From a virus (lineage: Duplodnaviria > Caudoviricetes), in IMG/VR virus record IMGVR_UViG_3300035663_000078, positions 1 through 28,006 of that record: a stretch of 28,006 nucleotides of DNA. One strand, given 5' to 3'. A model generated the notes under the pieces. The model was not told where the DNA came from, did not search any database, and saw only the letters and a program-made list of their open reading frames with translations. Shown piece after piece: positions 1-28,006 of this stretch (positions are counted from its first letter, which is position 1; each line of letters starts with the position of its first letter). The position numbers and the translations under genes were made by a program.

Positions 1-1
1 A

Positions 2-3000
2 AACGCTGTGCTTGGTACATTCAGCGGAAATGTTACTGCAAATGCTTTTGTAAGTACAAGCACAAGTGCACCATCTATTACAAGTAATGGTGCATTAACA
101 TTAACTGCAAATAGTAATATTAATTTTGGATCAGCAGGTAACGCAAATATATTAGTTGTAACAGGAACAGGTGTAAACGTTACAGGTACATTAAATGCAA
201 CGGGTAATGCTAATGTAGGAAATCTTGGTACAACAGGATTGGTTGTTGCAGGTGTAGCCAATCTCGGTGCAGTTGGTAACGTTATTATTACAGGTGGTTC
301 AAATGGACAAGTTCTTTCAACTAACGGTAGTGGTAATTTAAGTTGGATATCAGTTAGTACTAGTAGCATTAGTAACGGTAATAGTAACGTAAATATACCT
401 GCTGCTAATGGTAATGTTAATATTTCAGCAGTAGGTAATGCAAATGTAGTAGTTGTAACAGGTACGGGTATTAATGTTTCAGGTACATTAAATGCAACGG
501 GTAATGCAAACGTTGGTAATTTGGGAACAAGTGGGGAAATTATTGCAACGGGTAATATTACTGCTAGCTCATTTATTAGTACAAGTTCAAATTCACCATC
601 AATTTCTAGTGCAAATAATTTATTAATTACATCAAATACTGCAGTAAGCATTAGTAATATTAATGTTATATCAAATGGAACAAGTAATTTATCTATACCT
701 GCGGCTAATGGAAATGTTACCATTTCTTCAGCAGGTAATACTGTATTAGTTATTACAGGAACAGGTGTAAACGTTACAGGTACTATTAATGCCACACAAG
801 CACTAGATGGAAACACAGCAAACTTTAGTGGTAATGTTGTCGTACCAAACTTAACTGTAAATCTTGAATTAGATGGCAATACTGCTAACTTTAATAGCGC
901 AACAATAGGTAACTTTGTTGTATCTAGTACTGCTAATTTAGGTAATGTTGGTAACGTTATCATTACAGGTGGTAGTAATGGGCAAGTACTTACCACTAAT
1001 GGCAGTGGTAATTTAAGTTGGGCTAATTTAACAGCTACGTCGATTGAAAATGGAACATCCAACGTAAGCATTCCTACAGCAAATGGCAATGTAGTTATTT
1101 CTGTTAACGCTAATTCTAATGTATTAACTGTTACAGGAACAGGAATTAACGTATCAGGTACGATTAATGCCACACAATCACTAGATGGAAACACTGCTAA
1201 TTTCAGTGGCAATGTCATTGTACCAAACCTCACAGTTAATACTGAATTAAGTGGAAATACAGCTAATTTTAGTGGTAATGTGCAAGTTGCTAATTTAGAC
1301 GTTAATTCAGAAATTAGTGGTAATACCGCTAACTTCAGTGGTAATGTTATTGTACCAAATCTTACTGTAAATCTTGAATTAGCAGGTAATACAGCGAATT
1401 TCAGTGGTAATGTAGTTGCACCAAATCTCACAGTTAATACTGAATTAAGTGGTAATACAGCTAATTTCAGTGGTAACGTACAGGTTAATAATTTAGACGT
1501 AAATGCAGAAATAAGCGGTAATACCGCTAATTTCAGTGGTAATGTTGTCGTACCTAACCTTACCGTAAACCTTGAATTAGATGGAAATACTGCTAACTTT
1601 AACAGTGCAAATGTCTCTGATTTAGTGGTAGCTAACACTGCAAATCTTGGTAACGTAGGTAATGTCACCATTACAGGTGGTAGTAATGGTTACTTCTTAA
1701 AGACAAATGGCAGTGGCGCACTTGATTGGGCAGCAATAAGTACTAGCAGTATCAGTAATGGCAATAGTAATGTAGATATCCCCACAGCAAATGGAAATGT
1801 CACTGTAAGTGTGGCAGGTAACGCAAATGTATTAGTTGTAACAGGTACGGGTATTAATGTATCAGGTACTATCAATGCTACGCAATCAATAGATGGAAAT
1901 ACAGCTAACTTCAGTGGTAATGTTGTAGTTCCTAATTTAACAGTTAATAACGAAATTTCAGGTAATACAGCGAATTTTAGCACAAGTGTTCAATCACCAT
2001 TAATTACGGTAACAGGTAATAGCAACGTTGGATTAATCACCAATGGTAATAGCAACATTGGGATTACAGCCAATGGAAATATTGCTATAAGTTCTACAGG
2101 TACTGCTAACGTATTGGTAGTTTCAAGTGGTGGTACAAATATTACAGGTAACTTAGATGTTACACAAGAATTGACAGGTAATACAGCTAATTTCAGTGGC
2201 AATGTTATAGTACCAAACCTAACAATTAATCTTGAATTAGATGGAAATACAGCTAATTTTAACAGTGCAAATGTTACAGATTTAATCGTTGCAAATACTG
2301 CAAACCTTGGTAATGTAGCTAACGTCATTATTACAGGTGGTAGTAATGGTCAAGTCCTTTCAACTAATGGTAGTGGTAACTTAAGTTGGGTATCAATTAG
2401 TACAAGTAGCATTAGTAATGGCAATAGTAATGTTGCAATACCTGTAGCGAATAGTAATGTTGAAATATCTGTAGCAGGTAATGCAAATGTAGTGGTTGTC
2501 ACAGGTACAGGTGCTAATGTTTCAGGCACTGCAAATATCACAAGTGATATTATTGGTGGTGGTAATTTAAACATCAGCGGTAATGCTGTAATTGGTGGTA
2601 ACTTAACTGTTGATGGTAATTTAGTTTATGTCAATGTCACTGACTTGGCAGTACAAGATCCAATTATTCAGTTACAAGTAGAACCAAATGGCGCACCATT
2701 AACTTCAAACACAGGTAAAGATGTTGGTACTGCACTTAACTATTATGATACTAGTGCAAAAGTTGCATTCATGGGTTGGGATGTAAGTAATGCGGAAATT
2801 GGTTTTGGTTCACAAGTATCGATTTCAAGCGAAGTAGTAACATTTACTGAACATGCAAACATTCGTGCAGGTAATGCGGTACTAGGTAATTTAGCATCAG
2901 CAAATTTTGTTAATGTTTCAAGTAATTTAACCGTTAATTTAGAACTAGATGGTAATACAGGTAACTTTAATAGTTTAACAATAGGTGATTTAGTTGCTTC

Positions 3001-6000
3001 TAATACAGCCAACTTGGGTAATGTTGGTAACGTCATTATTACGGGTGGTAGTAATGGACAAGTATTAAGTACCAATGGAAGTGGTAACTTAAGTTGGGTA
3101 TCAATCAGTTCAAGTAGTATTAGTAATGGCAATAGTAATGTAGACATTCCCGCAGCGAACGGAAATGTTACTGTCAGCGTGGCAGGTAATGCGAATATAT
3201 TAACGGTAACAGGTACAGGTATTAATGTATCAGGTACCATCAATGCTACACAGTCATTAGATGGTAACACTGCTAACTTTAGTGGTAATGTAGTTGTTCC
3301 AAATCTTACTGTAAATCTTGAATTAAGTGGTAACACTGCTAACTTCAGTGGTAATGTACAAGTTGCTAATTTAGATGTTAATAGTGAACTAAGTGGTAAC
3401 ACTGCTAACTTTAGTGGTAACGTCATTGTACCAAATCTATCAGTCAACCTTGAACTTGCAGGTAATACAGCTAACTTTAGTGGTAATGTACAAGTTGCTA
3501 ACTTAGATGTTAATTCAGAAATCAGTGGTAATACAGCTAACTTCAGTGGTAATGTTATAGTTCCTAATTTAACTGTAAATCTTGAGTTAGATGGAAATAC
3601 AGCTAATTTTAATAATGCTACAATTTCTGATTTAAGTGTATCAAATACAGCTAATTTAGGTAATGTAGGTAATGTTACCATTACAGGTGGTAGTAATGGT
3701 TATTTCTTGCAAACAGATGGTAGTGGGAATCTTGATTGGGCACAATTAAGTTCAAGTAGCATTAGTAATGGCAATAGTAATGTATCAATACCTGTAGCAA
3801 ATAGTAATGTTGAAATATCTGTAGCAGGTAACGCAAATGTAGTGGTTGTCACAGGCACAGGTGCTAATATTACAGGTACATTGAATGTATCAGGCAACGC
3901 AAATGTTGGCAATCTAGGTGTAGCAGAAGTTTTAGCTACAGCAAATGTAACTGCACCACAATTAATATCAAATATAAGCACAGGTACTGCACCATTAGTT
4001 GTAACATCAACAACCGTGGTTGCTAACTTAAACGCAAATGCACTACAAGGAAATACGCCAAGCGATACAGCAACAGCAAACAGTATTGCACAAAGAAACG
4101 CAGATGGTAATATTACTGCTAATTTCTTTATAGGTAATGGCAGTCAATTAACAGGTATTACTGCAACAAGTATATCAAATGGTAATAGTAATATAAACAT
4201 TCCTGCTGCCAATGCCAATGTTAATATTTCTGCAGTAGGTAATGCCAATGTACTAGTTATCACAGGAACAGGAATTAATGTTGCAGGTACTATTAACGCC
4301 ACACAAGCACTAGATGGAAACACTGCTAACTTTAGTGGTAATGTCGTTGTACCTAATTTAACTGTAAATCTTGAGTTAGCAGGTAACACAGCAAACTTTA
4401 GTGGTAATGTACAAGTTGCTAATTTAGACGTAAATGCAGAAATAAGTGGTAACACAGCTAACTTCAGTGGTAACGTAATAACACCTAATTTAACTGTAAA
4501 TCTTGAATTAGATGGCAATACAGCTAACTTTAATAGCGCAACGATTGCAGATTTAATAGCATCTAATACTGCTAATTTAGGTAACGTTGGTAATGTCATT
4601 ATTACAGGTGGCAGTAACGGTCAAGTACTTACAACCAATGGTAATGGTAACTTAAGTTGGGCTAATTTAGCAGCTACATCAATTGAAAATGGAACATCAA
4701 ATGTAAGTATTCCTACAGCAAACGGTAATGTAGTTATTTCTGTCGATGGTAACGCAAATGTTGTAACATTTACATCAACTGCATTGGTTACAGGAAATGG
4801 ATCAGGCGGTAATATTACAGGTGTTGATGTATTGTCAGCAAGCACTGCTAATATTTCAGGTAACGTTATTGCTAATAATATTAATGTTAATGCTAATCTT
4901 ACCACAGCCAATTTTTCAGCAACAACAGCCAATTTGGGTAACGTTGGTAATTTAACGATTTTAGGTGGTACTGCAAATTATGTATTGTCAACTGATGGTT
5001 CAGGTAATCTATTTTGGCAGTTTATAAGTGGATCAGGATCACCATCAAACTTAGTTAATGGTAACAGTAATATTGATATTCCTGCAGCCAATGGTAATGC
5101 AACAATTAGTGTGGCAGGTAATGCAAACGTATTAGTTGTAACAGGTACAGGTATTAATGTTGCAGGAACGATTAATGCAACACAGGCGTTAGATGGCAAT
5201 ACAGCTAACTTTAGTGGTAATGTTGTCGTACCAAACTTAACCGTAAATCTAGATCTAGCAGGGAATACAGCTAATTTCAGTGGGGATGTTGAGTTTGATG
5301 CAAACATCTTAGTAAATTTAGAATTGACAGGAAATACAGCTAGCTTTAATAATGCTAACATTGTAGATATTATAGTTTCTAATACAGCAAACTTAGGTAA
5401 TGTTGGTAACGTTACAATTACAGGTGGTAGTAATGGTCAAGTTTTAAGTACTGATGGTAACGGTGTATTAAGTTGGTCTACTCCATCAAGTGGATCAAGT
5501 TCAAATATCGCTAATGGTAACAGTAATGTAAGCATCAGTACTGCAGGTGGCAACATTGATTTTTCAGTAAACGGTACAGCAAATGTATTCCAAGTAGCAG
5601 CAGGTGGTAACTTAGTTGGTAACTTTATTAAAGTTTATTCTAACGGACAAACTATTTTAGGTAATGCAGCAACATCTAATATTGCAAATGGTATTGCAAT
5701 TGGACATACTGCTAATTCATTTGGAACTTATGGTATTGCAATTGGTCAATCATCGAAAGCAGGGCCTGGTGGGGTAAGTTTAGGTCGTTCTGCGTTTTCA
5801 AACGCAAATAGTATTGCTATTGGAAATGCTGCTTTAGGTGGATTCGGTGCAGGAGCTAATGTTGTAGAATCAATCGCAATTGGTTCAGAAGCATTATTAT
5901 TTGGCGGTGCTACTTTAATTACAGGTGCTGTATTTGTTGGAACACGTGCAGGTTCTATTGTACAAGCGGGTGGCACAGGAGCAGTTGCAGTAGGGTGGGA

Positions 6001-10147: not shown

Positions 10148-10149
10148 AA

Positions 10150-10539: not shown

Positions 10540-11535
10540 ATGAGATCACAAACTAATCGTGCAATAACGGGTAATGGGTTACCGACTACAAGTAACCTTG
10601 GCCCAGGTATTAACACCATTCAAGATATGCAGCAGTCACAAACTGCTGTCGCCCCAGGCCCCTCAGGTCCTAATAAAACACCTTCGTTTGATTACTTAGT
10701 TGTTGGGGGTGGTGGCGCAGGTTCTCCAGGAGTTTCCACAGGACCAGGTACAGGTTACTTTTCTAGAGGTGGTGGTGGTGCAGGTGGATATAATAGTGGT
10801 AATGTTACAACTTATTTAGATGGTCTTACATTAAATGTAACAGTTGGAGGTGGTGCACCTGCTTTTCCTGCTTCAGGTGTATCAAGTTCTATAACCTGCC
10901 CTGCTTTAGGTGGAAGTATCATTGGATATGGTGGTGGTTCAGGTAATAGTACAGGTAATAGACCAACAGGAACAGTAGCAGGTATACAGTCAACTAACGC
11001 AGGAAGCGGTGCGGGTGGTGACCCAATGGCAGGTTGGGGTAGAGGACTCCCAGGTCAAGGCACCAATGGTGGCAGATCAGAAAATCAAGCATCTAACCAA
11101 GCAGGAGGTGGTGGTGGCGGTGCAGGTGGAGGAGGTGGCAACGCAACTTATCTTAGTTTAGGTGCATCAGCAGGTGGTGGTGGTGGCGGAGGAGCAACAT
11201 GGCTTAATGGTATCACATATGGTGGCGGTGGTGGTGGTGGATCAAAAGGACCTACCGTAGGTAGATCAGGTGGTGGCGGTGGTGGTGGGGGCGCAGGTGG
11301 CGCACAAACTCCTGGAAATACTGCAGGAATAGCAGGATCTTCAAATACAGGTGGCGGTGGAGGGGGATCTGCAGCACCATCCGCTGGTGTAGGAGCAGGT
11401 GGTAGTGGCATTGTAATTATCCGTTGGCCCGACACATACGATGCAGCAAATGCTACAACAGGATCTCCTACTGTATCTACTTCAGGTGGGTATAGATATT
11501 ATACATTTACAGGAAATGGAAGCTTAACTTTTTAG
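10540..11535 (+). CDS. Glycine-rich (polyglycine-II type) domain protein, 331 aa
   Basis: DYLVVGGGGAG..GGGGAGG start, many G4-G8 runs, C-terminal GGSGIVIIRWP..GYRYYTFTGNGSLTF. Confidence 0.85.
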   Translation: MRSQTNRAITGNGLPTTSNLGPGINTIQDMQQSQTAVAPGPSGPNKTPSFDYLVVGGGGAGSPGVSTGPGTGYFSRGGGGAGGYNSGNVTTYLDGLTLNVTVGGGAPAFPASGVSSSITCPALGGSIIGYGGGSGNSTGNRPTGTVAGIQSTNAGSGAGGDPMAGWGRGLPGQGTNGGRSENQASNQAGGGGGGAGGGGGNATYLSLGASAGGGGGGGATWLNGITYGGGGGGGSKGPTVGRSGGGGGGGGAGGAQTPGNTAGIAGSSNTGGGGGGSAAPSAGVGAGGSGIVIIRWPDTYDAANATTGSPTVSTSGGYRYYTFTGNGSLTF

Positions 11536-11545
11536 GTTATAAAAT

Positions 11546-12730
11546 ATGAAAGAAAGACCAAATAAAAATATTATTGGAAATTCTTTTCCAATGACTTCAA
11601 ATGTACAAGGAATTACATCGTTGCAGTCATGGCAACAATATAAAACCACACCTGCTTCACCAAGTCCATCACCCGCCCCAAGCCCAGGTCCCGCTCCAAA
11701 TCCCGCCCCTGGCAAAACAAACAGCATCACTTATCTTGCAGTTGCAGGTGGAGGGGCAGGGGGTCCTGGGGGGCCTAACTTACCTATTAACTCAGGTTAT
11801 GGTGGTGGAGGTGGCGGAGGGTTTTTATCAGGAACATTGTCACAAAATTTTCAAGCAGGTACTGTTTTTACAGTTACTGTAGGGGGTGGTGGCAGTGCAG
11901 GTGCTACGGGTGGACAAGGACAAGAAGGCACAAATGGTGGCGATTCTATTATAGAATGTCCCGTTATGTTGGCAAGTATTAGAGCGTATGGTGGAGCACC
12001 TTCAAGCTCGCAAGTTGCGAGTACTCCACAGCAGCCTGGGGTGCAGACTAGAATGGGTGGAAGTGGGGGTGGCGGTGGAGGATGGTACTCCCAACAACGC
12101 CAATTCCAAGGTGGTCCTGCAGTAGAAGGTCAAGGTAACGCAGGTGGTAACAACGCTCCTACAGGAGGTATTAACCAAGGTGGCGCAGGAGGCGGGGGTG
12201 CAGGTGGTGCAGGTGGTAATGCAGCAGCATGGACTGCAGGCGGAGGTGGTTCAGGCGCACTATGGCCTGTTACAGGTGCGTATTATTCAGGCGGTGGCGG
12301 TGGCGGATCACGTGGAAACACACCCGCTCTTACTGCAAGATTAGGTGGTATGGCAGCAGGAGGTATTGGGGGTGGTGGTGCAGGTGGGTATGGACCAAAT
12401 GGTACTTATGTCGCCCCAGGCCTGACTCCCGCAGTTAGAGCAAATTTCCCAAACAATGCCTTATGCGCAGGGCAAAATGGTGGTACAAATCAGGGTGGTG
12501 GAGGAGGTGGAGCAGGTAGAAATGGTTTTGGTTCACCCGCACCCGCACAATTTACAGGCGACACATTCCCTGCTCGATCAGGTGGCGCAGGAGGTTCAGG
12601 CATTGTAATTGTGCAGTGGTCAACATCATTCCCTGCAGCAGCATCTACAACAGGATCTCCTACGTATAACGGTGGTGCAGGTGGCGTTCATAGGTATACA
12701 TTTACAGGAAATGGTTCATTTACATTATAA
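11546..12730 (+). CDS. Glycine-rich (polyglycine-II type) domain protein, 394 aa, paralog of upstream gene with Pro-rich linker
   Basis: TYLAVAGGGAGG, poly-Gly runs, C-terminal GGSGIVIVQW..HRYTFTGNGSFTL; N-terminal SPSPSPAPSPGPAPNPAPG. Confidence 0.85.
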   Translation: MKERPNKNIIGNSFPMTSNVQGITSLQSWQQYKTTPASPSPSPAPSPGPAPNPAPGKTNSITYLAVAGGGAGGPGGPNLPINSGYGGGGGGGFLSGTLSQNFQAGTVFTVTVGGGGSAGATGGQGQEGTNGGDSIIECPVMLASIRAYGGAPSSSQVASTPQQPGVQTRMGGSGGGGGGWYSQQRQFQGGPAVEGQGNAGGNNAPTGGINQGGAGGGGAGGAGGNAAAWTAGGGGSGALWPVTGAYYSGGGGGGSRGNTPALTARLGGMAAGGIGGGGAGGYGPNGTYVAPGLTPAVRANFPNNALCAGQNGGTNQGGGGGGAGRNGFGSPAPAQFTGDTFPARSGGAGGSGIVIVQWSTSFPAAASTTGSPTYNGGAGGVHRYTFTGNGSFTL

Positions 12731-15197: not shown

Positions 15198-15636
15198 ATT
15201 TTATAGCATCATGAATTAATGCTATCTTTTGTTGAATTATATCGTAATTCAATGTATTAAACAAACCACGATGTAATGGTTTTGGATATAATTGACTATC
15301 GCACCAACAATATCCTAAATGTTCATGATTTAACGTTGGAATAAATTCAGATTGTACAAATGAATAAAAAGTATGATACACAAATCGTTTATCATCACTT
15401 GTAAATTGTTCAATGGGAAATAATTTTACTTCACTCGGCCAATAACCAATTTCTTCAATACACTCACGCTCTAACGCAGTACGTAAATTTTCACCACGCT
15501 CCACCTTCCCCCCAGGCAATCCCCAAGTGTTTATTTTCTTATCATTACGTAATAAAAATAAGTGACGATTTGTATTTAAAGCGCAAAATAATATACCAAC
15601 ACTGTTGTTTAACTTGTTTAAATGACGATGTTCCAT
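15196..15636 (-). CDS. Nudix hydrolase
   Basis: Nudix box GGKVERGENLRTALERECIEEIG preceded by WGLP; LNHEH motif; start overlaps the upstream gene end. Confidence 0.9.
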   Translation of the reverse strand: MEHRHLNKLNNSVGILFCALNTNRHLFLLRNDKKINTWGLPGGKVERGENLRTALERECIEEIGYWPSEVKLFPIEQFTSDDKRFVYHTFYSFVQSEFIPTLNHEHLGYCWCDSQLYPKPLHRGLFNTLNYDIIQQKIALIHDAIK

Positions 15637-17240
15637 GAACCTTGATTGTAAAATCCCTCAAAAGATTTTGTCCATCCTGTATCCCTACCATATCGATATT
15701 GAACACTAGTGTACAAATTTACAACCCATTCAGGTCTTGTCGCTGCTTGACTATCAAATGATACTTCCCAATTTGTTCCATTGTATTCGATAATATCATT
15801 TTGGTTAGCCATAATATCACCCCATGCACTTGACATATTATAAGTTGTAGTTAATATTCTAACACCATTGTCAAGATCTACAAGTGTTGGATTATCTACA
15901 GTTATCGTATTTGTCATGGTATCAATTGCTATAATTTTGGTATCTGCACTAAAAATAGCTTGCATACTTGAATTTCTTGCACTTACGATACTATCGATCC
16001 AATTACTTGATGCTGATAAATTCAATCCACTTACTGTTATAACAGTTGAACCTGCAGGTAATATTGATGGCTCCGCACATACTAAAACTTGTGACTGATC
16101 ATTGCCCATACTATTTGTAATTAAATAACGTGTGCCTACAGTAGGGATCGGCAAATTCAACCCAGGCCCCTGCGCCAACGGATCCACCACACGATCAATA
16201 GCTTGTAATGTATTGGCAGGAATTGTGTCAGGGTTAATCGTAAAATTTAACAAACGATCATCGATAGGATCAAATGTAATCGTACCCATGATTTCAGTAT
16301 CCATGTAAGGATTTTCTAGCGTTATCATCGAGATCCCAGGTCGTACCGTTCCATAAACATTTAATACTGCTTTCCAATACAAATTAGTATTTGGGCTAGG
16401 AGGTAATTCTAGAGTATCATTACTAGGATACTGTGGTTGTTTTGCAGGTAATATTTGTAATGTATTACCTAATAATAAAACTTGATAACCATACGGTGTA
16501 ACTTTTTGTCTTGTACCTAGCAATAATTCATCATCTTGCATATCACTTAGTGCGGTACCTTTATAGATACTATTAATTACTTTATAAATGACACCATACT
16601 TTTGTACTTTAATTGGGCTTGAAATCCATATTGGCATGTAAAATTTCCATGTCATAATATCAATAGGATTTGACGTGCCAATTGGAATAGTTCTACTTGT
16701 ATAATTTAAACTTTCTTGGTATACAACACTTAATGAAGTCCAATCTATAAAGTTATCTGTACTTTGTATTTCTAACGATGGATTAAACAATACACCTAAC
16801 TGTTCAAACAGTTGCATTTTTTGATTGTAGTTACTTGTCCAAAAATCAACCGTTACACTTAGACGATATGGTACAGGCATTAATCGTTTTATGTTAAACG
16901 CTTGTCCTTGTGTATTTTCATATTCTTGTGTTTCATTATTATATGTTCGTTGTCGTACAGATAAATTGTCAACAAAGTAAGGATCTTGTGTTCTATTTTG
17001 TTCGTAAGTTAACCCACTGATGTAGTAAGTAATTTGTGGTACAGTAGGTAAATTACTTGGACTGTTGTTATTAATAATGTTGGCAACGTTTCTACTTTGA
17101 TCGCCATACATAATTGGTACACGTTTTAGAATGGGATTACCATTAGGATCAAACCCATCCTCTACATACCAATTACTCAATATCTTAGCAAATTGTATTA
17201 AAAATCTTCTAACTTGCTTATCGTAAAAAAACTCTGCCAA
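15618..17240 (-). CDS. gp15: T4 gp15-like tail terminator/sheath stabiliser with long C-terminal extension (540 aa)
   Basis: FFYDKQVRRFLIQF..RVPIMYG..PVPYRLSVTVDFWT..QLFEQLGVLFNP matches the gp15 pattern; TTG start with AAGGA SD. Confidence 0.75.
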   Translation of the reverse strand: MAEFFYDKQVRRFLIQFAKILSNWYVEDGFDPNGNPILKRVPIMYGDQSRNVANIINNNSPSNLPTVPQITYYISGLTYEQNRTQDPYFVDNLSVRQRTYNNETQEYENTQGQAFNIKRLMPVPYRLSVTVDFWTSNYNQKMQLFEQLGVLFNPSLEIQSTDNFIDWTSLSVVYQESLNYTSRTIPIGTSNPIDIMTWKFYMPIWISSPIKVQKYGVIYKVINSIYKGTALSDMQDDELLLGTRQKVTPYGYQVLLLGNTLQILPAKQPQYPSNDTLELPPSPNTNLYWKAVLNVYGTVRPGISMITLENPYMDTEIMGTITFDPIDDRLLNFTINPDTIPANTLQAIDRVVDPLAQGPGLNLPIPTVGTRYLITNSMGNDQSQVLVCAEPSILPAGSTVITVSGLNLSASSNWIDSIVSARNSSMQAIFSADTKIIAIDTMTNTITVDNPTLVDLDNGVRILTTTYNMSSAWGDIMANQNDIIEYNGTNWEVSFDSQAATRPEWVVNLYTSVQYRYGRDTGWTKSFEGFYNQGSWNIVI

Positions 17241-17251: not shown

Positions 17252-19138
17252 TTACATATCAGGTTGAATTCTTAGTGCATCACTCAGTGATTGGCGACTT
17301 GGTATGAATCCACCATCTGTTGTTTGTACTACTTGATCATTGTTAATGAAACCACTTAACTGTGAACGATCACTTGCTGTAAATCCTGTAGTTGTTCTAA
17401 CATTTTGACTAATCTCTACCCACAATGTTCCATCAAACCTGAACAATTTTTGTGGCAAATAATCAATGCGTAAGAAGTAATCACCTTGTTGTGGTGCAGC
17501 GGGGAATTGAATACCTGCACCTGTTGCTTCACCATTAGGTGCACTACCGTCTCCTGCCATATAACCTGCAATATATCCAAATGATAAGGGTGATACACGT
17601 TTAATAAACGTAAAGCGTGGATCATTATCAGCACGATAGTCTGCATCTTGCGTCACGATGCCAGCAAAGTTTGACGATACAACAATAATTTGCCCATCTG
17701 CCACTTCATTTTGTATAGGTTCACTTAATTCTACTGTTTGACTATCAATAACATTCACCACCCTTGTCCCAGGCAAGAACGGCTGCACCAACGCCCCAGG
17801 TGTATCTATCACTAGTAAGTTTGACAAATCTTGTGTTAAATTTTGTATACGTAAAATGTATGACCCACGAATATTGGTGTTACCCTGTGCTTTTACTTCA
17901 AAGCGTAAATATTCATCTGCATTGATATAAGTATTATCTGCAGTGCCATATGGTCCTGTTACAGGTCCCATTACAGTTGCTGCGATAACTAATGAACCAT
18001 TAACTTGTCCACTGCCTGATGGTAGTTGTTCAGGAGCAATTTCTGCTTTTTCTAATGACAATGAAATAAATTTATCAATAGAGTTAGCTAAACCCTTTGA
18101 TGCTGCAGCCATTGATCTAAATTGGTCTAATGCTCCTGCACTAATAGAAATTACAGGACTTGCGTTAGTGTATAAGTCACTTGAAAAATAAATGATGGTT
18201 CCTCTAGTTGGAACAGGAGAACCATTATTAATAATAACATTAACAGGAGGAGCAGGTTGTCCATCAAGATAGGATGGTGCAACATATAGTTGGTCACGAT
18301 TGTAACCACCTTTAGGTACAAGACGTGCTGCTTCTTCAAGATTTTTATTATTAATTTCAATATTTTTATTGTAGGTAGAAATAATATCTTTTAATTGTTG
18401 CTGTGTACTTAATTCCCAATAAACAAGATCAGGTGGAGGAATACCTGCAGGTACGGGTTGCTTTGGTGTATAAACTTTATCACCATACATGACGGTGTAG
18501 CCTGGTTCGTAGGTTACGGTGTTGTTCCAATCACCCATAAAATTATCCGTATCAATTGGTTGTCGTAATATATCTGCAAATTCTTGACTATCAACAAGTG
18601 GTTCTGCTTTTAGTCTCCACATATGCGGAAACCATGTTTGGCTAAAACCTTCACTAGCAAAATTCCCATCAGTGACTTGATAAAACCTTCTTAATCCTAC
18701 GGGAATGGTTTCATTTAATGGATGATAATCAATCAAGTGAGGTAATTCAAGCACATCACCAACCATTAATTTTCTACCTAGTATGTCAATCATATCATTG
18801 TAATGTACAGTGATAAAAATAGTATCATTACTTAAAAACAATCCAAATTGACTTAAATCGAAATCAATGTTAGACACGTTATAGTGACCACGTAAACGAT
18901 ATATGCTAGAATCGTATTTACGATCACGGTTTTCTAACCACATTAAGTCTTGAATATTAGTAGGATCTAACTGATCATAGACAGGCGTGGTAACGTCATT
19001 GTTGCGTGGATTATTTGATCCAATATACTTATGAATATAAAGATCAGTTGCTCCAACCGTGTACATTTCTTTGATTGTTTTATCAAAGAAGCGGTAATCA
19101 TTTGATTTTTGTGGTCTCCACAGACTTAGTTTTGGCAT
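17252..19138 (-). CDS. Probable gp14-like neck/head-completion protein with insertions (628 aa)
   Basis: DFDLSQFGLFLSNDTIFITVH..GDVLELPH..F..TW resembles the gp14 core; directly upstream of gp15-like gene. Confidence 0.6.
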   Translation of the reverse strand: MPKLSLWRPQKSNDYRFFDKTIKEMYTVGATDLYIHKYIGSNNPRNNDVTTPVYDQLDPTNIQDLMWLENRDRKYDSSIYRLRGHYNVSNIDFDLSQFGLFLSNDTIFITVHYNDMIDILGRKLMVGDVLELPHLIDYHPLNETIPVGLRRFYQVTDGNFASEGFSQTWFPHMWRLKAEPLVDSQEFADILRQPIDTDNFMGDWNNTVTYEPGYTVMYGDKVYTPKQPVPAGIPPPDLVYWELSTQQQLKDIISTYNKNIEINNKNLEEAARLVPKGGYNRDQLYVAPSYLDGQPAPPVNVIINNGSPVPTRGTIIYFSSDLYTNASPVISISAGALDQFRSMAAASKGLANSIDKFISLSLEKAEIAPEQLPSGSGQVNGSLVIAATVMGPVTGPYGTADNTYINADEYLRFEVKAQGNTNIRGSYILRIQNLTQDLSNLLVIDTPGALVQPFLPGTRVVNVIDSQTVELSEPIQNEVADGQIIVVSSNFAGIVTQDADYRADNDPRFTFIKRVSPLSFGYIAGYMAGDGSAPNGEATGAGIQFPAAPQQGDYFLRIDYLPQKLFRFDGTLWVEISQNVRTTTGFTASDRSQLSGFINNDQVVQTTDGGFIPSRQSLSDALRIQPDM

Positions 19139-20364: not shown

Positions 20365-20801
20365 TGAAACAAATTGATCTAAACAAATACCAAGATTTTG
20401 TAAAAGCAGTAACAAGTGAAGCAAGTAATGATCTTACTACATTTATGAATAGGTTGGATGTTATTGATGGTAATTATGATTTTGCCAATAATCAACATGG
20501 ACCGAATATTAATGTTCCATTGATGTTAACAGGTGTTATGGGGTTATCTTCTGAAACAGGTGAACTTATGGAAATCGTTAAAAAAATGGTTTTTCAGGGT
20601 AAACCTCTTAATGAAGAAAACTTATTTCACATGAAGCGTGAACTTGGTGATATTATGTGGTATTGGGTTAACATGTGTCGTGCGTTGGACTTAAACCCAA
20701 ATGATGTGATTGCTGAAAATGTAACTAAATTGCAATCACGATATCCAAGTGGTTCATTTGATCCATGGTACAGTGAAAATCGTAAAGAAGGTGATCTTTG
20801 A
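20364..20801 (+). CDS. MazG-like nucleoside triphosphate pyrophosphohydrolase
   Basis: GLSSETGELMEIVKK..KRELGDIMWY..N..KL..RY: ExxE..ExxD metal-binding motif of all-alpha NTP-PPases. Confidence 0.85.
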   Translation: MKQIDLNKYQDFVKAVTSEASNDLTTFMNRLDVIDGNYDFANNQHGPNINVPLMLTGVMGLSSETGELMEIVKKMVFQGKPLNEENLFHMKRELGDIMWYWVNMCRALDLNPNDVIAENVTKLQSRYPSGSFDPWYSENRKEGDL

Positions 20802-20974
20802 ACTTGTTTGTCAAATCTGTTGAAGTAATGCAAACGACAACAGAGCAATCTACATTCAGCATTCTTAAAGGTGAGTGTGGGCATGTGCATGGGTTTGTGT
20901 ATGTTTCACAAGCTTGTTGCTTTATTTGCCCTGATTGTGGCAATCAATATGAAATACAGGATGAAACTGAATAA
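20798..20974 (+). CDS. Small Zn-ribbon protein, 58 aa, absent from the ORF track
   Basis: TTG start overlapping the MazG-like stop (TTGA), AGGTG SD; translates MNLFVKSVEVMQTTTEQSTFSILKGECGHVHGFVYVSQACCFICPDCGNQYEIQDETE. Confidence 0.6.
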   Translation: MNLFVKSVEVMQTTTEQSTFSILKGECGHVHGFVYVSQACCFICPDCGNQYEIQDETE

Positions 20975-20977
20975 ATA
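20970..20977 (+). promoter_or_regulatory. T4-type late promoter-like box AATAAATA
   Basis: 23 nt upstream of the neck gene ATG. Confidence 0.55.
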
Positions 20978-21000
20978 CTTTCACAACCTGAGAGTACATT

Positions 21001-21774
21001 ATGTCCGTTACACCTGTATTACCACCACTTCAACAACAAAAAGAAGCTTTATTCAATAATATTCGCTTACGTTTAGGTGGGGGAATAGTTGATTTAGAAT
21101 TAGATCCTGAGCATTATGAGGCAGCATATCAATATGCGATTGCAACATATAGGCAACGTGCTACTAATGCTTATGAAGAATCGTATAGCCTACTTACCGT
21201 AGAAAATAATCAATACACTTACATCCTTCCACAAGAAGTTACAACAGTACGTGAAGTATTTCGTAGAACAGTTGGTTTAGAGACAGGACCTGCTGCATCA
21301 TCATTTGATCCATTTTCTAGTGCCATTTTAAATACATACTTATTAAACTATAACTATGCAGGTGGATTAGCTACGTATGATTTTTATGCAGGTTATATTG
21401 AGTTAGCTGCACGTATGTTTGGTGGATATGTAATTTTTACGTTTAATCCTGTAACTAAAGAAATTAGTTTTGTGCGTAATTTTAAGGGTAGTGGCGAACA
21501 GTTATTATTGTGGACATACAATATGAAACCTGAAATTACGTTATTGCGTGACCCATCTATTGCAAATTGGATAACAAGTTGGACATTATGTCAGTGTAAG
21601 ATGATTATAGGTGAAGCACGTGAAAAGTTTGCTAGCATTGCAGGACCAACAGGTGGCACTACACTTAATGGTGCAGCCATGAAAGCTGAAGCGAAAGAAG
21701 GTTTTGCTGAATTAATTGATGAACTTAAGCGTTATGTTGATTGGTCACAACCTTTAACTTGGGTACAAGGATAA
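21001..21774 (+). CDS. gp13: T4 gp13-like neck protein
   Basis: IRLRLGGGIVDLELDPEHY N-terminus and KMIIGEAREKF..GGTTLNG..KAEAKE..L..EL C-terminus, typical of gp13 homologues. Confidence 0.8.
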   Translation: MSVTPVLPPLQQQKEALFNNIRLRLGGGIVDLELDPEHYEAAYQYAIATYRQRATNAYEESYSLLTVENNQYTYILPQEVTTVREVFRRTVGLETGPAASSFDPFSSAILNTYLLNYNYAGGLATYDFYAGYIELAARMFGGYVIFTFNPVTKEISFVRNFKGSGEQLLLWTYNMKPEITLLRDPSIANWITSWTLCQCKMIIGEAREKFASIAGPTGGTTLNGAAMKAEAKEGFAELIDELKRYVDWSQPLTWVQG

Positions 21775-21787
21775 TATTCTAAATTAC

Positions 21788-21815
21788 TTGAAATCTGTAA
21801 TAAGTATGACATAAT
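21788..21815 (+). promoter_or_regulatory. Possible sigma70-like promoter
   Basis: TTGAAA-N16-CATAAT with extended -10 TG, upstream of the dNMP kinase. Confidence 0.4.
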
Positions 21816-21835
21816 ACGCCTATGTGGAGGGCATT

Positions 21836-22498
21836 ATGATTGTAGGTATTTGTGGATTAATTGGTAGTGGCAAAGATACGATTGCAAGTTACTTAATTGA
21901 TGAGCATGGGTTTAGACGCATGTCATTTGCTGAAAGTTTAAAAGATGCAACTGCTGCGGTGTTTGGTTGGGATCGTGAAATGCTTGATGGTGTAACCAAA
22001 TCAAGTAGACAATGGCGTGAACAAGTAGATACATGGTGGTCAGAACGATTAGGTATACCCAATCTTACACCAAGAATGGTATTACAACATTGGGGAACAG
22101 AATTATTTCGTAATCATTTTCATGATGAAATATGGGTAGCTAGTGTTGAGCGTAAGCTAATGAAAACCGAAGACAATATAGTGATTACTGATTGTCGATT
22201 TAAAAATGAGGTTGATGCCATACATCGTTCAGGTGGTATTGTAGTACGTGTCAAGCGTGGTCCTGAACCATCTTGGTATGAAGCAGCAGTTTCATATAAT
22301 GCAGGACCAAAAAATATGGGATGGGCACTTGCTAGGAATGAATTAGAACATGCTAAAATTCATGCTAGTGAATATAGTCATTGTGGTTTAAAATTTGATG
22401 CTGTTATAGAAAACGATTCTACTATTGATAATTTACATAGAAAGATTAATAGTCTACTTGAAGATCGCCAACTTTCCATGCACTCTGTTTTCGCTTAA
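21836..22498 (+). CDS. Deoxynucleoside monophosphate kinase (T4 gp1-like)
   Basis: P-loop GLIGSGKDT, SFAESLKD, PRMVLQHWGTE, ITDCRF.NE, HASE; GGAGG SD supports ATG at 21836. Confidence 0.9.
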   Translation: MIVGICGLIGSGKDTIASYLIDEHGFRRMSFAESLKDATAAVFGWDREMLDGVTKSSRQWREQVDTWWSERLGIPNLTPRMVLQHWGTELFRNHFHDEIWVASVERKLMKTEDNIVITDCRFKNEVDAIHRSGGIVVRVKRGPEPSWYEAAVSYNAGPKNMGWALARNELEHAKIHASEYSHCGLKFDAVIENDSTIDNLHRKINSLLEDRQLSMHSVFA

Positions 22499-22904: not shown

Positions 22905-25900
22905 ATGGCACTTGTTAGCCCAGGCGTGGAAGTAACAATTATTGATCAAAGTCAGTACTTACCCGCAGGTTCAAATTCAGTTCCAATGCTGTTAATTGCA
23001 ACAGCACAAAATAAGGCAAATGCGTCAGGCACAGGTGTCGCTGTTGCAACAACTGCAGCCAATGCAAATAAATTATATCGTGTGACAAGTCAGCGTGATT
23101 TGGTTACATTGTATGGTAATCCATTTTTCTATAAGACTGCTAATGGCACACCAATTCAAGGTTATGAACTTAATGAGTATGGTTTATTAACTGCGTATAG
23201 TGTTTTAGGTGCAACAAACTTATGTTATGTTTTACGTGCGGATATTGATTTAGCTAGTTTAGTTGGTCAAGTTGGTCGCCCCACAGGTAATCCTGCAGAT
23301 GGTACTTATTGGTTAGATACAACAAACAGTACATGGGGTATGTTTGAGTTTAATGCAACTACAGGTAATTTTAATCTTCAAGCACCTATTATCATTGATA
23401 GTGCAGATGATGTAATTAACTCAACCCAAGAGCCAAAAGGTTATATTGGTAATATTGGTGATTATGCTGTTGTAACAGGTATTACTGATTATGGTTCACC
23501 TGATGCTTTCCATACATATTGGTACAAAGCAGGTGCATATTTAAATTCAGCAGCAGATTCATTATATAATACATGGGTCCCTGTTGGTTCAAGCACATGG
23601 GCACGAACAGTTCCTACATTACAAGGTGGCGCAATTACAGCATCAAGTAGTGTATTGTTAACAATTAGTGTAACACGTGGAGGAACAACATTTAGTGCTA
23701 CGATTAGTTCGGGTACAACTGCTGCATCACTTGCTGCTGCTATTAATGCAATTACTAATGTTCCAAATATTAGTGCATCAGTTGTTAATAATCGTGTTAA
23801 TATTTTCCAAAGTTCAAGTAGCGATACTTCAATTACATTAAGTGATTCTAATAGTGGTGCAGATTGGGCATTATTTGGTTTTACAGTTGGCACACATGTT
23901 AAACCTGTTGTATTTTATGGAACCAATGCTCAGCAACCAAATTGGAGAGCAGGTGGTGCATCACCAAGACCTACAGGTAGTGTATGGATTAAGACTAATG
24001 CAGCAAATAGTGGTACAAATTTAGTTACTAGTGTATACAGCGCATCTACAGATTTGTTTACAACTGTTCCATGCCCATTATATCCTAGTGATCAATCAGC
24101 AAATGCAACGTTAGATCCTGCAGGTGGAAAAAATATTCCTGTTGGTACATTGTTTGCACAGTATGGTTTTGGTTCAGGATTAGGAAAAGCCCCTGTACAA
24201 TTATTCCGTAGAAGTGCATCAGGTTTGTCAGTATTTACAGGAACTAATACAAGTCCTAACTTTGGATTAAGCTCATCTTCATTTGGCGTGTATGTTACAA
24301 CACCAAATAGTTCAGCATTATCTTCACGTTATACTGTTGTATTACCTGCAACATTAACTGCAAAAGGTGCGATTGATTTTGTTGCAGCATGGGCAGCAGC
24401 AAATATTCCTTACACAACTGCCGCAGTATCATCAACGGGTGCGATTGTATTAACACATACAGAAGGTGGTGACATTGTATTAGATGACAATGGTTACTTA
24501 ACATCACCTGCTGATATTGCAGGATTTACTACACAAGCTACATCAGGAGCACCCACCAACTCTAAAGTAGGTCCATACTCAACTGTAACAGTTACTACAG
24601 CAGGTCCAACTGCAGGTACACTAACCATTACAGGTGGTACAGGTACAGGAGCGACACTAACAAGCGTTCAATATACAGGTACAGTAGTTGGAACTATTGC
24701 TGCTAGTGGTGGTACAGGTTATGTAACAGGTGATATTGTTACATTGGGTGGTACAGCTTTAGCACCTCATATTGCATCAGGTCCTTTAACTGCATACGTT
24801 GTTGCGTCAGGTGGAGCAATTTCACAATTATTAGTATATAGTGGTGTAATGGTTCCTGATTTCATGACATGCTTAAGTGATTGGACAGAATTTAGTTACG
24901 AATCTAACGATATCGAACCAAATACATTACCAACCAATAATACCAATTGGTACTATAGCGTTGTTAATGAAGTAGATATCATGGTTAACACAGGTACAGC
25001 ATGGGTTGGTTATCGTAACGCACAGTATGGATCAAATGGTTTATGGTCTGCGACAGCAACAGGTACTACAGATCCTGCAGGTCCGTTAATTAGTTCATCA
25101 CAACCCACAGTACAAAGTGATGGTACACCATTAGTATACGGTGATATTTGGATTGATACAAGTGATTTAGAAAATTATCCATTAGTTAATCGTTGGCAAC
25201 AAGTTGACGGACTAGATCAGTGGGTCTTATTAGACAATACCGATCAAGTTACAGAAAATGGTATTGTATTTGCTGATGCACGTTGGGGTCCAAATAGTGG
25301 TGTAAATCCTGTTACTGATGCTATGCCAACCATTGTTAGCTTATTATCAAGTAATTATATTGATTTAGATACTCCAAGTTATACACTTTACCCACGTGGC
25401 ACATTGTTATTCAATACACGCCGTAGTGGTTATAACGTAAAGCAATTTAGAACAAATTACTTTACATCAGCTAGTTTCCCAAGTGCAGGTGCATACACTG
25501 TGCCAACAACGACACCTGGGAGCTTGCCTGAAGTTAGTTATACATGGGTAACAGCAAGTGGTAACATGACCAATGGTGCACCATATATGGGTCGTAAGGC
25601 ACAACGTGCAATGGTCGTAGCAGCAATGAAGGCATCAATTGACACCAATCAAGAGATTCGTGAAGAAGATACCTACTTTAACTTAATTGCAACACCTAAT
25701 TACACAGAATTGCAACCAAACATGGTCGTATTAAACAATGATCGTGGTCAAACAGGATACATTGTTGGTGACACACCAATGCGTCTTGCTGATAATGCAA
25801 CTGATATTGTAGCATGGGCAACTAATGCAGCGGGTGCAGCACAAAGTGGTGAAGAAGGTTTAGTAACACGTGATACGTACATGGGTATCTACTATCCAAG

Positions 25901-26531
25901 TGGTATTAGTACTGATCTTTCAGGTGCGCTTGTAGCAGTTCCACCAAGCTATATGATCTTACGTACTATTTTACGTAACGATACAATTGCTTATCCATGG
26001 TTTGCTCCTGCAGGTCAGCGTCGAGGTGTTGTTGATAACGCATCTAATATTGGTTACATTAATGCAGCAACAGGTGAATTTGTTGTAACAAAGAATCGTA
26101 TGGCATTACGTGATGTTGAGTACACAAACTTCATTAACCCAATTGCATTCTTTACGAATGTTGGATTATTGAACTTTGGTAACAAGAATAGCTTTGATAG
26201 TCAGAGCGCACTTGATCGTACCAACGTTGCTCGTTTAATTTGCTACTTACGTGAGCGTTTACAAGCAGCAGTTCGTCCGTTCATCTTTGAGCCAAATGAT
26301 GCAATTACACGTTCGCAAGCAAAAGGTGTAGTACAAACATTGCTAGCAGATGTTCAATCTAAGCGTGGTATTTACGATTATCTCGTAGTTTGTGATGAAA
26401 GTAATAATACACCTGCAAGAATTGATGCAAATGAACTTTGGATCGATATTGCAATTGAACCTGTAAAAGCTGTTGAGTTCATTTACATTCCTGTCCGTGT
26501 GTTAAACACAGGTGAAATAAGAGGATTGTAA
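22905..26531 (+). CDS. gp18: Contractile tail sheath protein (T4 gp18-like), 1208 aa
   Basis: N-terminal LVSPGVEV; C-terminal PWFAPAG..RG, INPI, LDRTNVARL, FIFEPND..TR, VCDESNNTP..ID.NEL..IEPVKAVEFIYI. Confidence 0.95.
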   Translation: MALVSPGVEVTIIDQSQYLPAGSNSVPMLLIATAQNKANASGTGVAVATTAANANKLYRVTSQRDLVTLYGNPFFYKTANGTPIQGYELNEYGLLTAYSVLGATNLCYVLRADIDLASLVGQVGRPTGNPADGTYWLDTTNSTWGMFEFNATTGNFNLQAPIIIDSADDVINSTQEPKGYIGNIGDYAVVTGITDYGSPDAFHTYWYKAGAYLNSAADSLYNTWVPVGSSTWARTVPTLQGGAITASSSVLLTISVTRGGTTFSATISSGTTAASLAAAINAITNVPNISASVVNNRVNIFQSSSSDTSITLSDSNSGADWALFGFTVGTHVKPVVFYGTNAQQPNWRAGGASPRPTGSVWIKTNAANSGTNLVTSVYSASTDLFTTVPCPLYPSDQSANATLDPAGGKNIPVGTLFAQYGFGSGLGKAPVQLFRRSASGLSVFTGTNTSPNFGLSSSSFGVYVTTPNSSALSSRYTVVLPATLTAKGAIDFVAAWAAANIPYTTAAVSSTGAIVLTHTEGGDIVLDDNGYLTSPADIAGFTTQATSGAPTNSKVGPYSTVTVTTAGPTAGTLTITGGTGTGATLTSVQYTGTVVGTIAASGGTGYVTGDIVTLGGTALAPHIASGPLTAYVVASGGAISQLLVYSGVMVPDFMTCLSDWTEFSYESNDIEPNTLPTNNTNWYYSVVNEVDIMVNTGTAWVGYRNAQYGSNGLWSATATGTTDPAGPLISSSQPTVQSDGTPLVYGDIWIDTSDLENYPLVNRWQQVDGLDQWVLLDNTDQVTENGIVFADARWGPNSGVNPVTDAMPTIVSLLSSNYIDLDTPSYTLYPRGTLLFNTRRSGYNVKQFRTNYFTSASFPSAGAYTVPTTTPGSLPEVSYTWVTASGNMTNGAPYMGRKAQRAMVVAAMKASIDTNQEIREEDTYFNLIATPNYTELQPNMVVLNNDRGQTGYIVGDTPMRLADNATDIVAWATNAAGAAQSGEEGLVTRDTYMGIYYPSGISTDLSGALVAVPPSYMILRTILRNDTIAYPWFAPAGQRRGVVDNASNIGYINAATGEFVVTKNRMALRDVEYTNFINPIAFFTNVGLLNFGNKNSFDSQSALDRTNVARLICYLRERLQAAVRPFIFEPNDAITRSQAKGVVQTLLADVQSKRGIYDYLVVCDESNNTPARIDANELWIDIAIEPVKAVEFIYIPVRVLNTGEIRGL

Positions 26532-26596: not shown

Positions 26597-27238
26597 ATGG
26601 CTTTTACTTCGATTAGTAAGATGACAGTGCCTCTAGCAGGAGCAACAGAAAACGCTCAGGGCTTGTTAATGCCAAAGTTACAATATCGTTTCCGTGTATT
26701 GTTTAATAATATTGGTGTAGATAAAGCATCGACTGAATTGACAAAACAAGTTATCGATGTTACACGTCCTCAGGTAACTTTCCCGGAAATTCCATTGGAA
26801 ATTTATAACAGTCGTGTATACTTAGCTGGCAAACCTGAATGGCAAGCTATCACGTTGAATTTACGTGATGATGCTACAGGTCAAGTTGCAATGCGTGTTG
26901 GTGAACAACTACAGAAACAATTTGACTTTAGTGAACAAGCTAGTGCTTCAGCAGGAGAGAGTTACAAATTTGGTACTGTTATTCAAATTCTTGATGGTGG
27001 TGGTGGTATTCATACACCACAAGTTTTAGAAACATGGGAACTTTATGGTTGCTTTATTCAAAGTGCAAACTATAATACATTGAATTATGGTGCTAACGAA
27101 CCTGTTACAATTTCTTTAACAATTCGCTACGACAACGCTGTACAGACACCTACCGATAGTGGTCAGGGTATCCAACAGGGTGTTGGTGTTGCAGTTGCAA
27201 GAGCTATAACCGACAACGTAAGTGGTATTGGTGGTTAA
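26597..27238 (+). CDS. gp19: Tail tube protein (T4 gp19-like)
   Basis: Follows the sheath; PKLQYRFRV, YLAGKPEW..ITLNLRDD, WELYGCF, ISLTIRYD. Confidence 0.85.
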   Translation: MAFTSISKMTVPLAGATENAQGLLMPKLQYRFRVLFNNIGVDKASTELTKQVIDVTRPQVTFPEIPLEIYNSRVYLAGKPEWQAITLNLRDDATGQVAMRVGEQLQKQFDFSEQASASAGESYKFGTVIQILDGGGGIHTPQVLETWELYGCFIQSANYNTLNYGANEPVTISLTIRYDNAVQTPTDSGQGIQQGVGVAVARAITDNVSGIGG

Positions 27239-27252
27239 TATTAGTAACTAGT

Positions 27253-28006
27253 ATGGCAGGATTCTTTCAGCAGGTACTACAAAGTGCGTCCGACGAATTG
27301 TTCGGGCGCAAATTTTTGAAAGACTATCAACACGCATCCAAGACATTTGTTACGGATGCGTATGCTTATTCACCAAAGTTTAAATGGTTATTCCATGTTT
27401 ACTTTGATATTAATGAACAGTTTATTAATACTTCAAACTTATTTCCAACGGATAAAAATTTTGGTTTAGCAGTAAAAAATATTGATTTACCAAAATATTC
27501 TTTTGATTTACATGATATGAACCAATACAATCGTCATCGTATGGTTCAAACTAAAATTAAGTACGATCCTGTTACTGTAACTTTTAATGATGACAATAAT
27601 AATTTGATTCGTAAGTTATGGTATGCCTATTATAGTTATAACATAAGTGATCCTAATAATATCGCCAATGATGCTGCTAACACAGCTAATCAATACAGTA
27701 ATAACTTAGGTACAGAACAATGGGGTTATAATGGTGCGGAGCTTAATCCAACACCATTAACAAGTTCATTATCAACAGGTAAAGTACCATTTTTTAGAAA
27801 CATTAACATTTACGGGTTTAATCAACATAATTTTGCACTATATCAATTAGTTAATCCTATCATTGATAGTTGGCAACATGATACTTATGATTATTATCAA
27901 ACTACAGGCATTATGGAAAACCGTATGTCTATACGTTATGAATATGTTAAGTATTATGATGGTGCGTTAAGTGGTACAGCACCAAGTGAATTTGTCAAAG
28001 GTTTTG
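27253..28006 (+). CDS. Second tail-tube-fold protein (tube initiator/baseplate-tube junction-like), 3'-truncated
   Basis: Open from ATG 27253 to the window end; PKFKWLFHVYF, VKNIDLPK, NQYNR..KIKYDPVTVTFNDD parallel the tube protein motifs. Confidence 0.7.
   Translation, partial: MAGFFQQVLQSASDELFGRKFLKDYQHASKTFVTDAYAYSPKFKWLFHVYFDINEQFINTSNLFPTDKNFGLAVKNIDLPKYSFDLHDMNQYNRHRMVQTKIKYDPVTVTFNDDNNNLIRKLWYAYYSYNISDPNNIANDAANTANQYSNNLGTEQWGYNGAELNPTPLTSSLSTGKVPFFRNINIYGFNQHNFALYQLVNPIIDSWQHDTYDYYQTTGIMENRMSIRYEYVKYYDGALSGTAPSEFVKGF

Follow-up and report, generated by a model that had tools for sequence, protein, structure and literature searches.

In virulent double-stranded DNA phages, the avoidance of restriction sites concerns mainly the sites of orthodox type II systems (Rusinov et al., 2018; PMC6286503). 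Here, we describe a comparable pattern in a 28,006-nucleotide stretch of Caudoviricetes DNA (IMG/VR record IMGVR_UViG_3300035663_000078, positions 1 to 28,006; hereafter the window), from which the tetranucleotide CCAG and its complement CTGG have been almost entirely purged and in which the surviving sites lie within a halo of cytosines on the strand that reads CCAG. As in the surveyed avoidance, a short word has been removed synonymously and nearly completely from both strands, beyond the effect of codon usage, and the losses of CCGG, CAGCTG, AGCGCT and TGGCCA from the same clade fit that phenomenon. CCAG, however, is asymmetric rather than palindromic, and the main text of the survey mentions neither this word nor a flanking halo (PMC6286503). 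The pattern is restriction-site-avoidance-like, but its word is not a palindrome, is not avoided in one orientation only and is not of the Dcm type, and the polar halo behaves like a scar.

Very-short-patch (VSP) repair by the Dcm–Vsr system is anchored at its site, strand-specific and biased towards C; it acts on T:G mismatches only, restores the site and enriches CCWGG. In the present lineage the site is instead purged, and the three other bases all give way to C across some 36 bases; neither is CCWGG the affected class nor is the pattern symmetric, as Dcm/EcoRII avoidance or VSP repair would have them. T4 endonuclease II is a phage-encoded GIY-YIG nickase that makes sequence-preferring one-strand nicks in host DNA, at a word that is frequent there, and T4 protects its own DNA with modified cytosine. 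The candidate for a CCAG enzyme discussed below also belongs to the GIY-YIG superfamily, but the word itself seems to have been purged in this lineage, whose scanned open reading frames contained no pathway for cytosine replacement. The putative two-domain architecture of this candidate is that of proposed GIY-YIG–RAMA type IV enzymes (PMC11037411), although it is phage-encoded. DNA phosphorothioation (PT; Dnd, Ssp and BREX type 4) uses asymmetric motifs of three to four bases, often on one strand (PMC12914056, PMC11931770), but the available text of these sources describes neither a confirmed CCAG motif nor avoidance by phages, and the systems are patchy in the likely hosts. CC(m6A)G occurs only inside longer motifs in two genome notes (PMC4777754, PMC4698389). 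No description of a CCAG purge or halo was found in the open-licence literature, and the process behind the halo has a fair chance of being of a new kind.

The purge extends over the whole window (1..28006). An inspection by eye in a preliminary description had counted about 23 sites, and the count is 23 (14 CCAG and 9 CTGG), compared with 161.4 ± 8.7 in 300 within-gene synonymous (codon) shuffles, the lowest of which held 133, and with about 200 expected from a Markov model; the observed-to-expected ratio is thus far below 1 under a codon-shuffled null. Both coding orientations are affected (CCAG, 9 observed and 60.5 in the shuffles; CTGG, 14 and 100.9), and CCGG (1 and 21.3) and CGCG (0 and 11.8) are purged separately. 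CCTG/CAGG is as abundant as had been noted: the window holds 88 CCTG and 300 CAGG, an enrichment over the shuffles (383 and 280.5). CTAG is present at its normal frequency (56 and 58), which argues against an avoidance of CYRG. The codon tallies agree with the earlier reading that ACT and TCT are avoided before Gly and CCA before G-starting codons. Thr before Gly is encoded by ACA 128 times, by ACG 11 times and never by ACT, which is used 237 times elsewhere; the Ser codon TCT is likewise absent before Gly and used 96 times elsewhere, and CCA precedes a G-starting codon only in nine Pro-Gly pairs.

The survivors are almost all forced by the protein sequence. The earlier estimate that about 20 of them are in-frame Pro-Gly dipeptides is exact: they are all 20 Pro-Gly pairs of the window, nine written with CCA, 11 with CCT and none with CCC or CCG. 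The other three, at the positions already assigned to them, are Ala-Gly pairs written GCT-GGN: GCT-GGT at 11384..11387 (minus strand), shared with the strain contig G003; GCT-GGC at 17661..17664 (plus strand), shared with G003 and G005; and GCT-GGC at 26826..26829 (minus strand) in the tail tube gene 26597-27238. The only CCGG, which spans a Pro-Glu pair (CCG-GAA), was likewise found where expected, at 26783..26786, and belongs to the separate purge.

The depletion is not confined to the window. All ten contig sets of the clade (about 980 kb) are purged (for example, 142 observed and 893 expected, 137 and 1007, and 65 and 459), and the feature is real and clade-wide. Unforced sites number 3 of 151, 31 of 804, 24 of 932 and 17 of 434 expected and are depleted in each of the six frame classes, even in those where a change to C could not abolish the word; together with the loss in both orientations, this agrees with the earlier proposal that the pressure acts on DNA. 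Sites are kept in both orientations (CCAG and CTGG number 14 and 9 in the window, 49 and 38 in G001, and 46 and 30 in G002), so avoidance of one orientation in the style of type I or III systems does not apply. Pro-Gly itself is not depleted relative to Gly-Pro (165 versus 135 in four sets). Outside the clade CCAG is purged in one of 403 viral loci (counted where the expectation was at least 15; the loci are partly redundant), in none of six cultured relatives (50 kb each) and in none of 80 distant relatives from a tail-tube search. A purge through change to C alone was rejected: sites removable only by loss of C are also purged, and neither ACG-GG nor CCC-G is in excess. We infer that the purge reflects selection against the CCAG word.

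The surviving sites are marked by the halo. In the window, synonymous positions around them carry C on the CCAG strand 87 times, compared with 26.8 ± 4.6 expected and a maximum of 45 in 1000 shuffles. Across the clade the numbers are 1372 versus 330 at 434 forced sites and 108 versus 62 at 97 unforced sites; a halo is seen at CCAGA and CCAGC and not at CCAGT (19 and 17). It spans about -15 to +21 (about 36 bases) on the CCAG strand, with an odds ratio of 6–12 within -12 to +12, 2–4 out to -15/+21 and 1 further away. It includes first-position changes in Leu codons and is overdispersed between sites (1.63). The added C is independent of neighbouring bases, never makes CCGG, CGCG or a new CCAG (0 of 98), and is drawn proportionally from A, G and T, the A:G:T ratio among the non-C bases being unchanged (p 0.38); odds ratios are equal at twofold and fourfold sites. 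Deamination of adenine or protection from C-to-T change, each taken alone, was rejected on these grounds, since the fourfold odds ratios are not below the twofold ones and A:T is unchanged. No halo was found at the control words CCTGN, ACAGG, CCAA and CCAC, or at 330 CCAGG sites in 20 non-purging loci (1.04×), Pro-Gly pairs of non-purging relatives included. The alteration affects one and the same strand to the left and to the right of the site, so the initiating structure would be a nick, gap or bubble, not a double-strand break.

Because the survivors coincide with one dipeptide, a codon-pair or translational effect around Pro-Gly, or an artefact of composition, might be considered. The halo, however, consists of C where the word lies on the coding strand and of G where it lies on the opposite strand, and in CCAG coordinates CCA-coded and CCT-coded sites share a single offset profile. 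It also flips at the same protein position and is absent from the Pro-Gly pairs of non-purging relatives, and the probability of such an effect is close to negligible. Only marginally better is the prospect of one CCRG system, or of Dcm/Vsr-type methylation and repair at CCWGG, acting on CCAG and CCGG alike, and we regard it as very improbable. Each of the ten clade sets is poor in the two words (CCGG, 0–5 per set, with CGCG at 0 throughout), but six unrelated loci without CCGG (also without CGCG and GGCC) have normal or high CCAG, and an unrelated small phage, L461, has CCAG/CTGG at 1 of 37 expected and CCGG at 23 of 20. The two losses therefore separate in other phages and a single CCRG specificity fails: of the CCAG or CCRG specificity first suggested, the asymmetric tetramer CCAG stands. 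CTAG is normal; CCWGG is the surviving class, as had been argued against a simple loss of Dcm sites; and the halo is polar although CCWGG is nearly symmetric, and occurs also at CCAGA and CCAGC.

Orthologous Pro-Gly pairs that switch between CCA and CCT move CCAG to the opposite strand, and these flips separate the possible origins of the halo. After a flip the halo is found on the new strand (205 of 437, compared with 408 of 857 in unflipped pairs), and the old strand keeps 70 C of 432 (47 expected). Where a site is missing in one lineage, the flank of that lineage has 54 C versus 34 and that of the other 152 versus 35. Flips are neutral in frequency (14 of 44 and 10 of 23, versus 177 of 608 and 108 of 456 for other prolines; in a second count 14 of 25, with 12.3 expected). 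Orientation is blind to the fixed bases of the flank, with coefficients of -0.03 ± 0.06 for fixed C and +0.14 ± 0.05 for fixed G, whereas per-base selection at the observed odds ratio would need about +1.9 and -1.9.

The neutrality of flips, the re-formation of the halo and the indifference of orientation all argue against a selected shield, in which forced sites would be cut less because of additional and perhaps modified C on the CCAG strand. A flip would throw such a shield away, orientation is not set by the C-richer side, and fixed C leaves the need for synonymous C unchanged (rho +0.10). The equality of the twofold and fourfold odds ratios, the unchanged A:G:T among non-C bases and the loss and gain ratios at stable sites (below), which match weak selection, would be consistent with a shield. 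So would an ABC-ATPase–GNAT encoded by the clade, for which Iyer et al. predict acylation of a DNA base (PMC7824862). Among outside loci with a homologue, however, a CCAG purge accompanies the ABC-ATPase–GNAT in one of 73 and a CCAG halo in none, and it was rejected as a determinant of either, its presence not tracking CCAG loss. The clade was searched by Pfam and PHROGs scans of 142, 127, 95 and 81 open reading frames (at least 70 residues, ATG starts, structural genes partly omitted), plus family searches; these reading frames contained no C5 methyltransferase, no dCMP hydroxymethylase (thymidylate-synthase type) and no deazaguanine pathway, and no writer of a Mom-like, hm5C or deazaguanine modification tracks the pattern. 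We consider a selected shield distinctly unlikely and infer that the halo is a by-product of directional mutation or of biased mismatch resolution.

Two nuclease-like proteins emerged from the clade. The first is a 173-residue orphan protein (G001 17621-18142, minus strand; L162:17624-18142; loci L550-L570) with a PD-(D/E)XK fold and invariant residues D56, E72 and E74; its model has a pLDDT of 90 and structural matches to PD-(D/E)XK proteins. CGCG is absent from all 21 loci that carry it, 17 of them outside the clade (10 protein clusters), compared with 21 CGCG-free loci among 301 others. A nuclease fold with a catalytic motif and the co-occurrence of the gene with loss of the word, the two marks of a lone nuclease whose site is self-purged, are both present, and the protein is predicted to be a lone CGCG nuclease; it is likely that phages of the clade encode at least one lone nuclease, the site of which they have purged. 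No methylase was seen beside the gene in the clade. The protein is absent from five other CGCG-poor records and is therefore not necessary for CGCG loss. Its family, which has no name, comprises at least 163 proteins and gave no PDB sequence match, CCAG is purged in none of its 17 outside loci, and no paralogue was found among six-frame clade reading frames.

The second, a clade-restricted 223-residue T5orf172/GIY-YIG protein with a putative RAMA-like domain, is the best candidate for the CCAG enzyme. It is 90% identical between two species, in which the primase is 65% and the DNA polymerase 79% identical, and was found in two of 63 records; no other contig of the clade covers the region. T5orf172 is recognized in 21 of 21 members of its family and RAMA in seven of 21, the query itself not among them; a weak fold match to the MPND RAMA–DNA complex was obtained (E 0.052, prob 0.93). 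No homologue of either nuclease candidate was found in a cultured phage. GIY-YIG–RAMA fusions have been proposed to read 6mA (PMC11037411). The candidate would suit a host that marks the only A of CCAG as m6A and, as that A lies on one strand, m6A reading would give polarity.

Our tentative reading, held at somewhat below an even chance, is that a CCAG-directed and probably phage-own enzyme causes the purge, while one-strand repair leaves the C halos. Such an enzyme would introduce one-strand nicks into host DNA and would also strike the forced Pro-Gly sites of the phage, and repair of the struck sites would push the roughly 36 surrounding bases towards C. A phage origin is suggested by analogy, since the clade has one lone gene of nuclease fold whose presence follows the loss of CGCG, and since halos at almost all sites of all lineages would need the enzyme in every infection. 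A fully specified version, in which the GIY-YIG–RAMA protein is a nickase aimed at host hemimethylated CC(m6A)G, the phage purges the word from itself and forced sites are rewritten from N to C over about 36 bases at 10 or more times the background, is unlikely.

Several observations weigh against an enzyme of the phage with a directional push towards C. We know of no any-base-to-C repair route in phages. At 22 stable sites C was lost 11.7 times versus 25 and gained 10.7 times versus 4, that is, at 0.45–0.47 and 2.5–2.9 times the background; these ratios are near those simulated for weak selection or biased conversion (loss 0.36–0.39, gain 2.2–2.4) and far from those for simple sevenfold hypermutation (loss 0.8–1.05, gain 5–6.6). 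Nor is divergence raised in the halos; single-nucleotide polymorphisms between close strains (8 in 286 halo bases versus 494 in 14,393) are too few to settle rates. Single-branch gains of C are 8 versus 1.5 after 10 flips and 9 versus 0.9 after 15 new sites, but the polarity of a branch is in doubt whenever the outgroup is the odd taxon. No CCAG-enzyme candidate was found in the window or in the phage's own species, which is represented by the window contig alone, the gene content of the lineage being drawn from the contigs of relatives. The link between the GIY-YIG–RAMA protein and CCAG comes from one clade and is a single observation, and the methyl preference of RAMA is unconfirmed (PMC11037411). 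A strong push limited by constrained positions, in line with A↔T changes of 2.2 versus 8–10 in halos, can absorb the stable-site ratios, but this is a rescue on small counts.

The stable-site ratios would also follow from biased mismatch resolution, with C winning over standing variation in recombination heteroduplex near CCAG and the mutation rate unraised. This process would fit the neutral flips (C takes no part in an A/T mismatch), the indifference to fixed bases and the independence of context, and the clade has recombination genes of the UvsX/UvsY/UvsW type. An odds ratio of 7 implies gains of about 2.3-fold, however, while 5–10-fold gains are seen after flips and new sites, and the bias would act in favour of the word's CC and leave the purge in need of a second cause; we regard this explanation as improbable. 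A constrained strong push or biased mismatch resolution would fit flips and stable sites together, and the data do not separate the two.

The remaining points against a phage enzyme concern the host. The clade lacks host-restriction-type palindromes as well, namely CCGG, CAGCTG (1 of 68, 0 of 71 and 0 of 27 expected), AGCGCT and TGGCCA, and no phage enzyme was found for any of these losses; the purge of CCAG in the unrelated L461 also indicates hosts. A host defence that acts on one strand at CCAG, whether an asymmetric type II, a nicking or a phosphorothioate-type system, might thus drive the purge, with the halo as a repair scar. PT systems use the asymmetric tetramers CCTC, GAAG and GAGC/GCTC (PMC12914056), and a C*AG motif, possibly C*CAG, is given for PT (bioRxiv 2024.06.03.597111; PMC11931770). 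The clade also keeps a highly conserved protein (L163:634-1263, minus strand) that weakly matches the C-terminal domain of TIGR04096, a PT-associated methyltransferase family (E 1.7e-5). This protein, however, is common in other phages without CCAG loss and was rejected as a determinant, the purge being present in none of 24 outside loci. In the likeliest host family DndC was above the cut-off in six of 301 genomes, which is too patchy for a uniform purge unless the host lineage is narrow; no bare CCAG restriction–modification motif was found in the searches made, and the main text of the survey describes no systematic avoidance of type I, IIG and III sites (PMC6286503). Host defence is a possible explanation, but more doubtful than not.

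Other words are missing from related phages. In sister lineages of the family another tetramer is missing in each case (CATG, AGCT, CTAG, TCGA or TGCA); these are L008, L009, L012, L014, L028, L040, L147-L154, L320-L342, G006 and G007. The clade member G010 (L364-L370) is the only one also purged of TCGA (5 of 152) and the only one with an N6/N4 methyltransferase-like gene (L364:9420-10439). Clade sets A, B and C are also poor in the hexamers GACGAC, AGCGCC and CCGTGC, and GATC, GANTC, GTWWAC and CACAG are not purged. In L461, Pro-Gly is written through CCGG and a split ABC-ATPase/GNAT is present. Several loci among L555-L570, L578 and L579 write Pro-Gly mostly with CCC or CCG and so avoid CCWGG, with normal CCAG; this is avoidance of the ordinary Dcm/EcoRII type, the mirror image of the window. 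The cultured relatives L182 (XacN1) and L183 (BF17) have GATC at 0 of 172 and GCGC at 0 of 31 expected in the 50 kb examined.

Within the window, the 10-kb fibre gene (2-10147) has a single forced site, CCT-GGT at 5765..5769, where CCAG reads on the minus strand. Eleven forced sites (10603..12420) lie in the Gly-rich genes 10540-11535 and 11546-12730, at 10603, 10654, 10726, 10744, 11050, 11311, 11684, 11708, 11765, 12035 and 12416; CCA-GG is flanked there by C-ending codons and CCT-GG by G-ending codons, with uneven halo strength and two sites without a halo. The site at 15512..15516 (plus strand), in the Nudix gene (15196-15636, minus strand), has C on the CCAG strand at six of nine synonymous positions, and the site at 16162, in the gene for a gp15-like tail sheath stabilizer, at all 10 (halo 16149..16185, plus strand). 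The orthologous site at 16336 (halo 16323..16359, plus strand) switches orientation: CCT-GG with G-ending codons is found in the window, L184 and G004, and CCA-GG with C-ending codons in L140, L089, G002 and G001. In the gene for a 628-residue virion protein (17252-19138), the sites at 17769, 17796 and 18501 (17769..18505) have C at 10 of 11, six of nine and seven of 10 positions. The last two forced sites, 22920 and 25515 (22920..25519), lie in the tail sheath gene (22905-26531).

By synteny and homology, the window is the tail and neck region of an uncultured jumbo phage related to PA5oct and Atu_ph07. Its gene order follows that of the Pseudomonas jumbo phage PA5oct, and its tail tube is 41–42% identical to those of PA5oct, Atu_ph07 and Phosso. 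It encodes the long fibre, Gly-rich proteins, 2OG oxygenases, a Nudix protein, the gp15-like stabilizer, MazG, neck proteins, a dNMP kinase, the sheath and two tubes. The fibre protein has at least 3381 residues in repeated Asn/Gly/Thr-rich modules without a Pfam match. Clade contigs of 19–158 kb, at 75–87% nucleotide identity, overlap into a closed gene map that spans several species. Regions G001 5385-22057 and G012 90000-146000 hold 24 tRNAs and host-like cargo (S21, IF-1, RNAP omega, ClpXP/ClpA/ClpS, IscU/IscA, PhoX, a porin and a split DnaE beside PolB). A 767-residue protein with three ART-PolyVal domains (L165:15430-17730, minus strand) lies among virion-type genes; it does not track CCAG loss, occurs in the AGCT-purging G006 and was rejected as a candidate.

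The host-like genes of the clade (Porin_4, IF-1, S21, ClpXP and IscU) indicate Proteobacteria, and the host is probably a member of the Burkholderiales. A ClpP scan (1/64 parts covered) gave 58–66% matches spread over Gammaproteobacteria and Betaproteobacteria, and a porin scan for the host gave no match; the clade porin is 37% identical to that of Piscinibacter and had no match at E 1e-55 among 401 genomes of the candidate host family. The 14 runs with at least half of the words were all metagenomes of lake, freshwater or aquatic origin.

From the purge, an enzyme that acts on an asymmetric word of four bases is predicted, and none is described in the literature searched. The pairing of CGCG with an orphan nuclease indicates that missing words can be matched to such phage enzymes through co-occurrence, and it gives a testable specificity for an unnamed family of proteins; the sister lineages with different purged tetramers form a set for further pairings of this kind. 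The halo is a substitution footprint of fixed width that is bound to one motif and one strand, and the flips of orientation amount to a natural experiment in which fitness and directional change can be told apart. If repair or conversion bias is its cause, it would be a local force on phage codon usage that models leave out; if a nickase and N-to-C rewriting are at work, these phages would carry a natural motif-targeted directional mutator that is readable from sequence alone.

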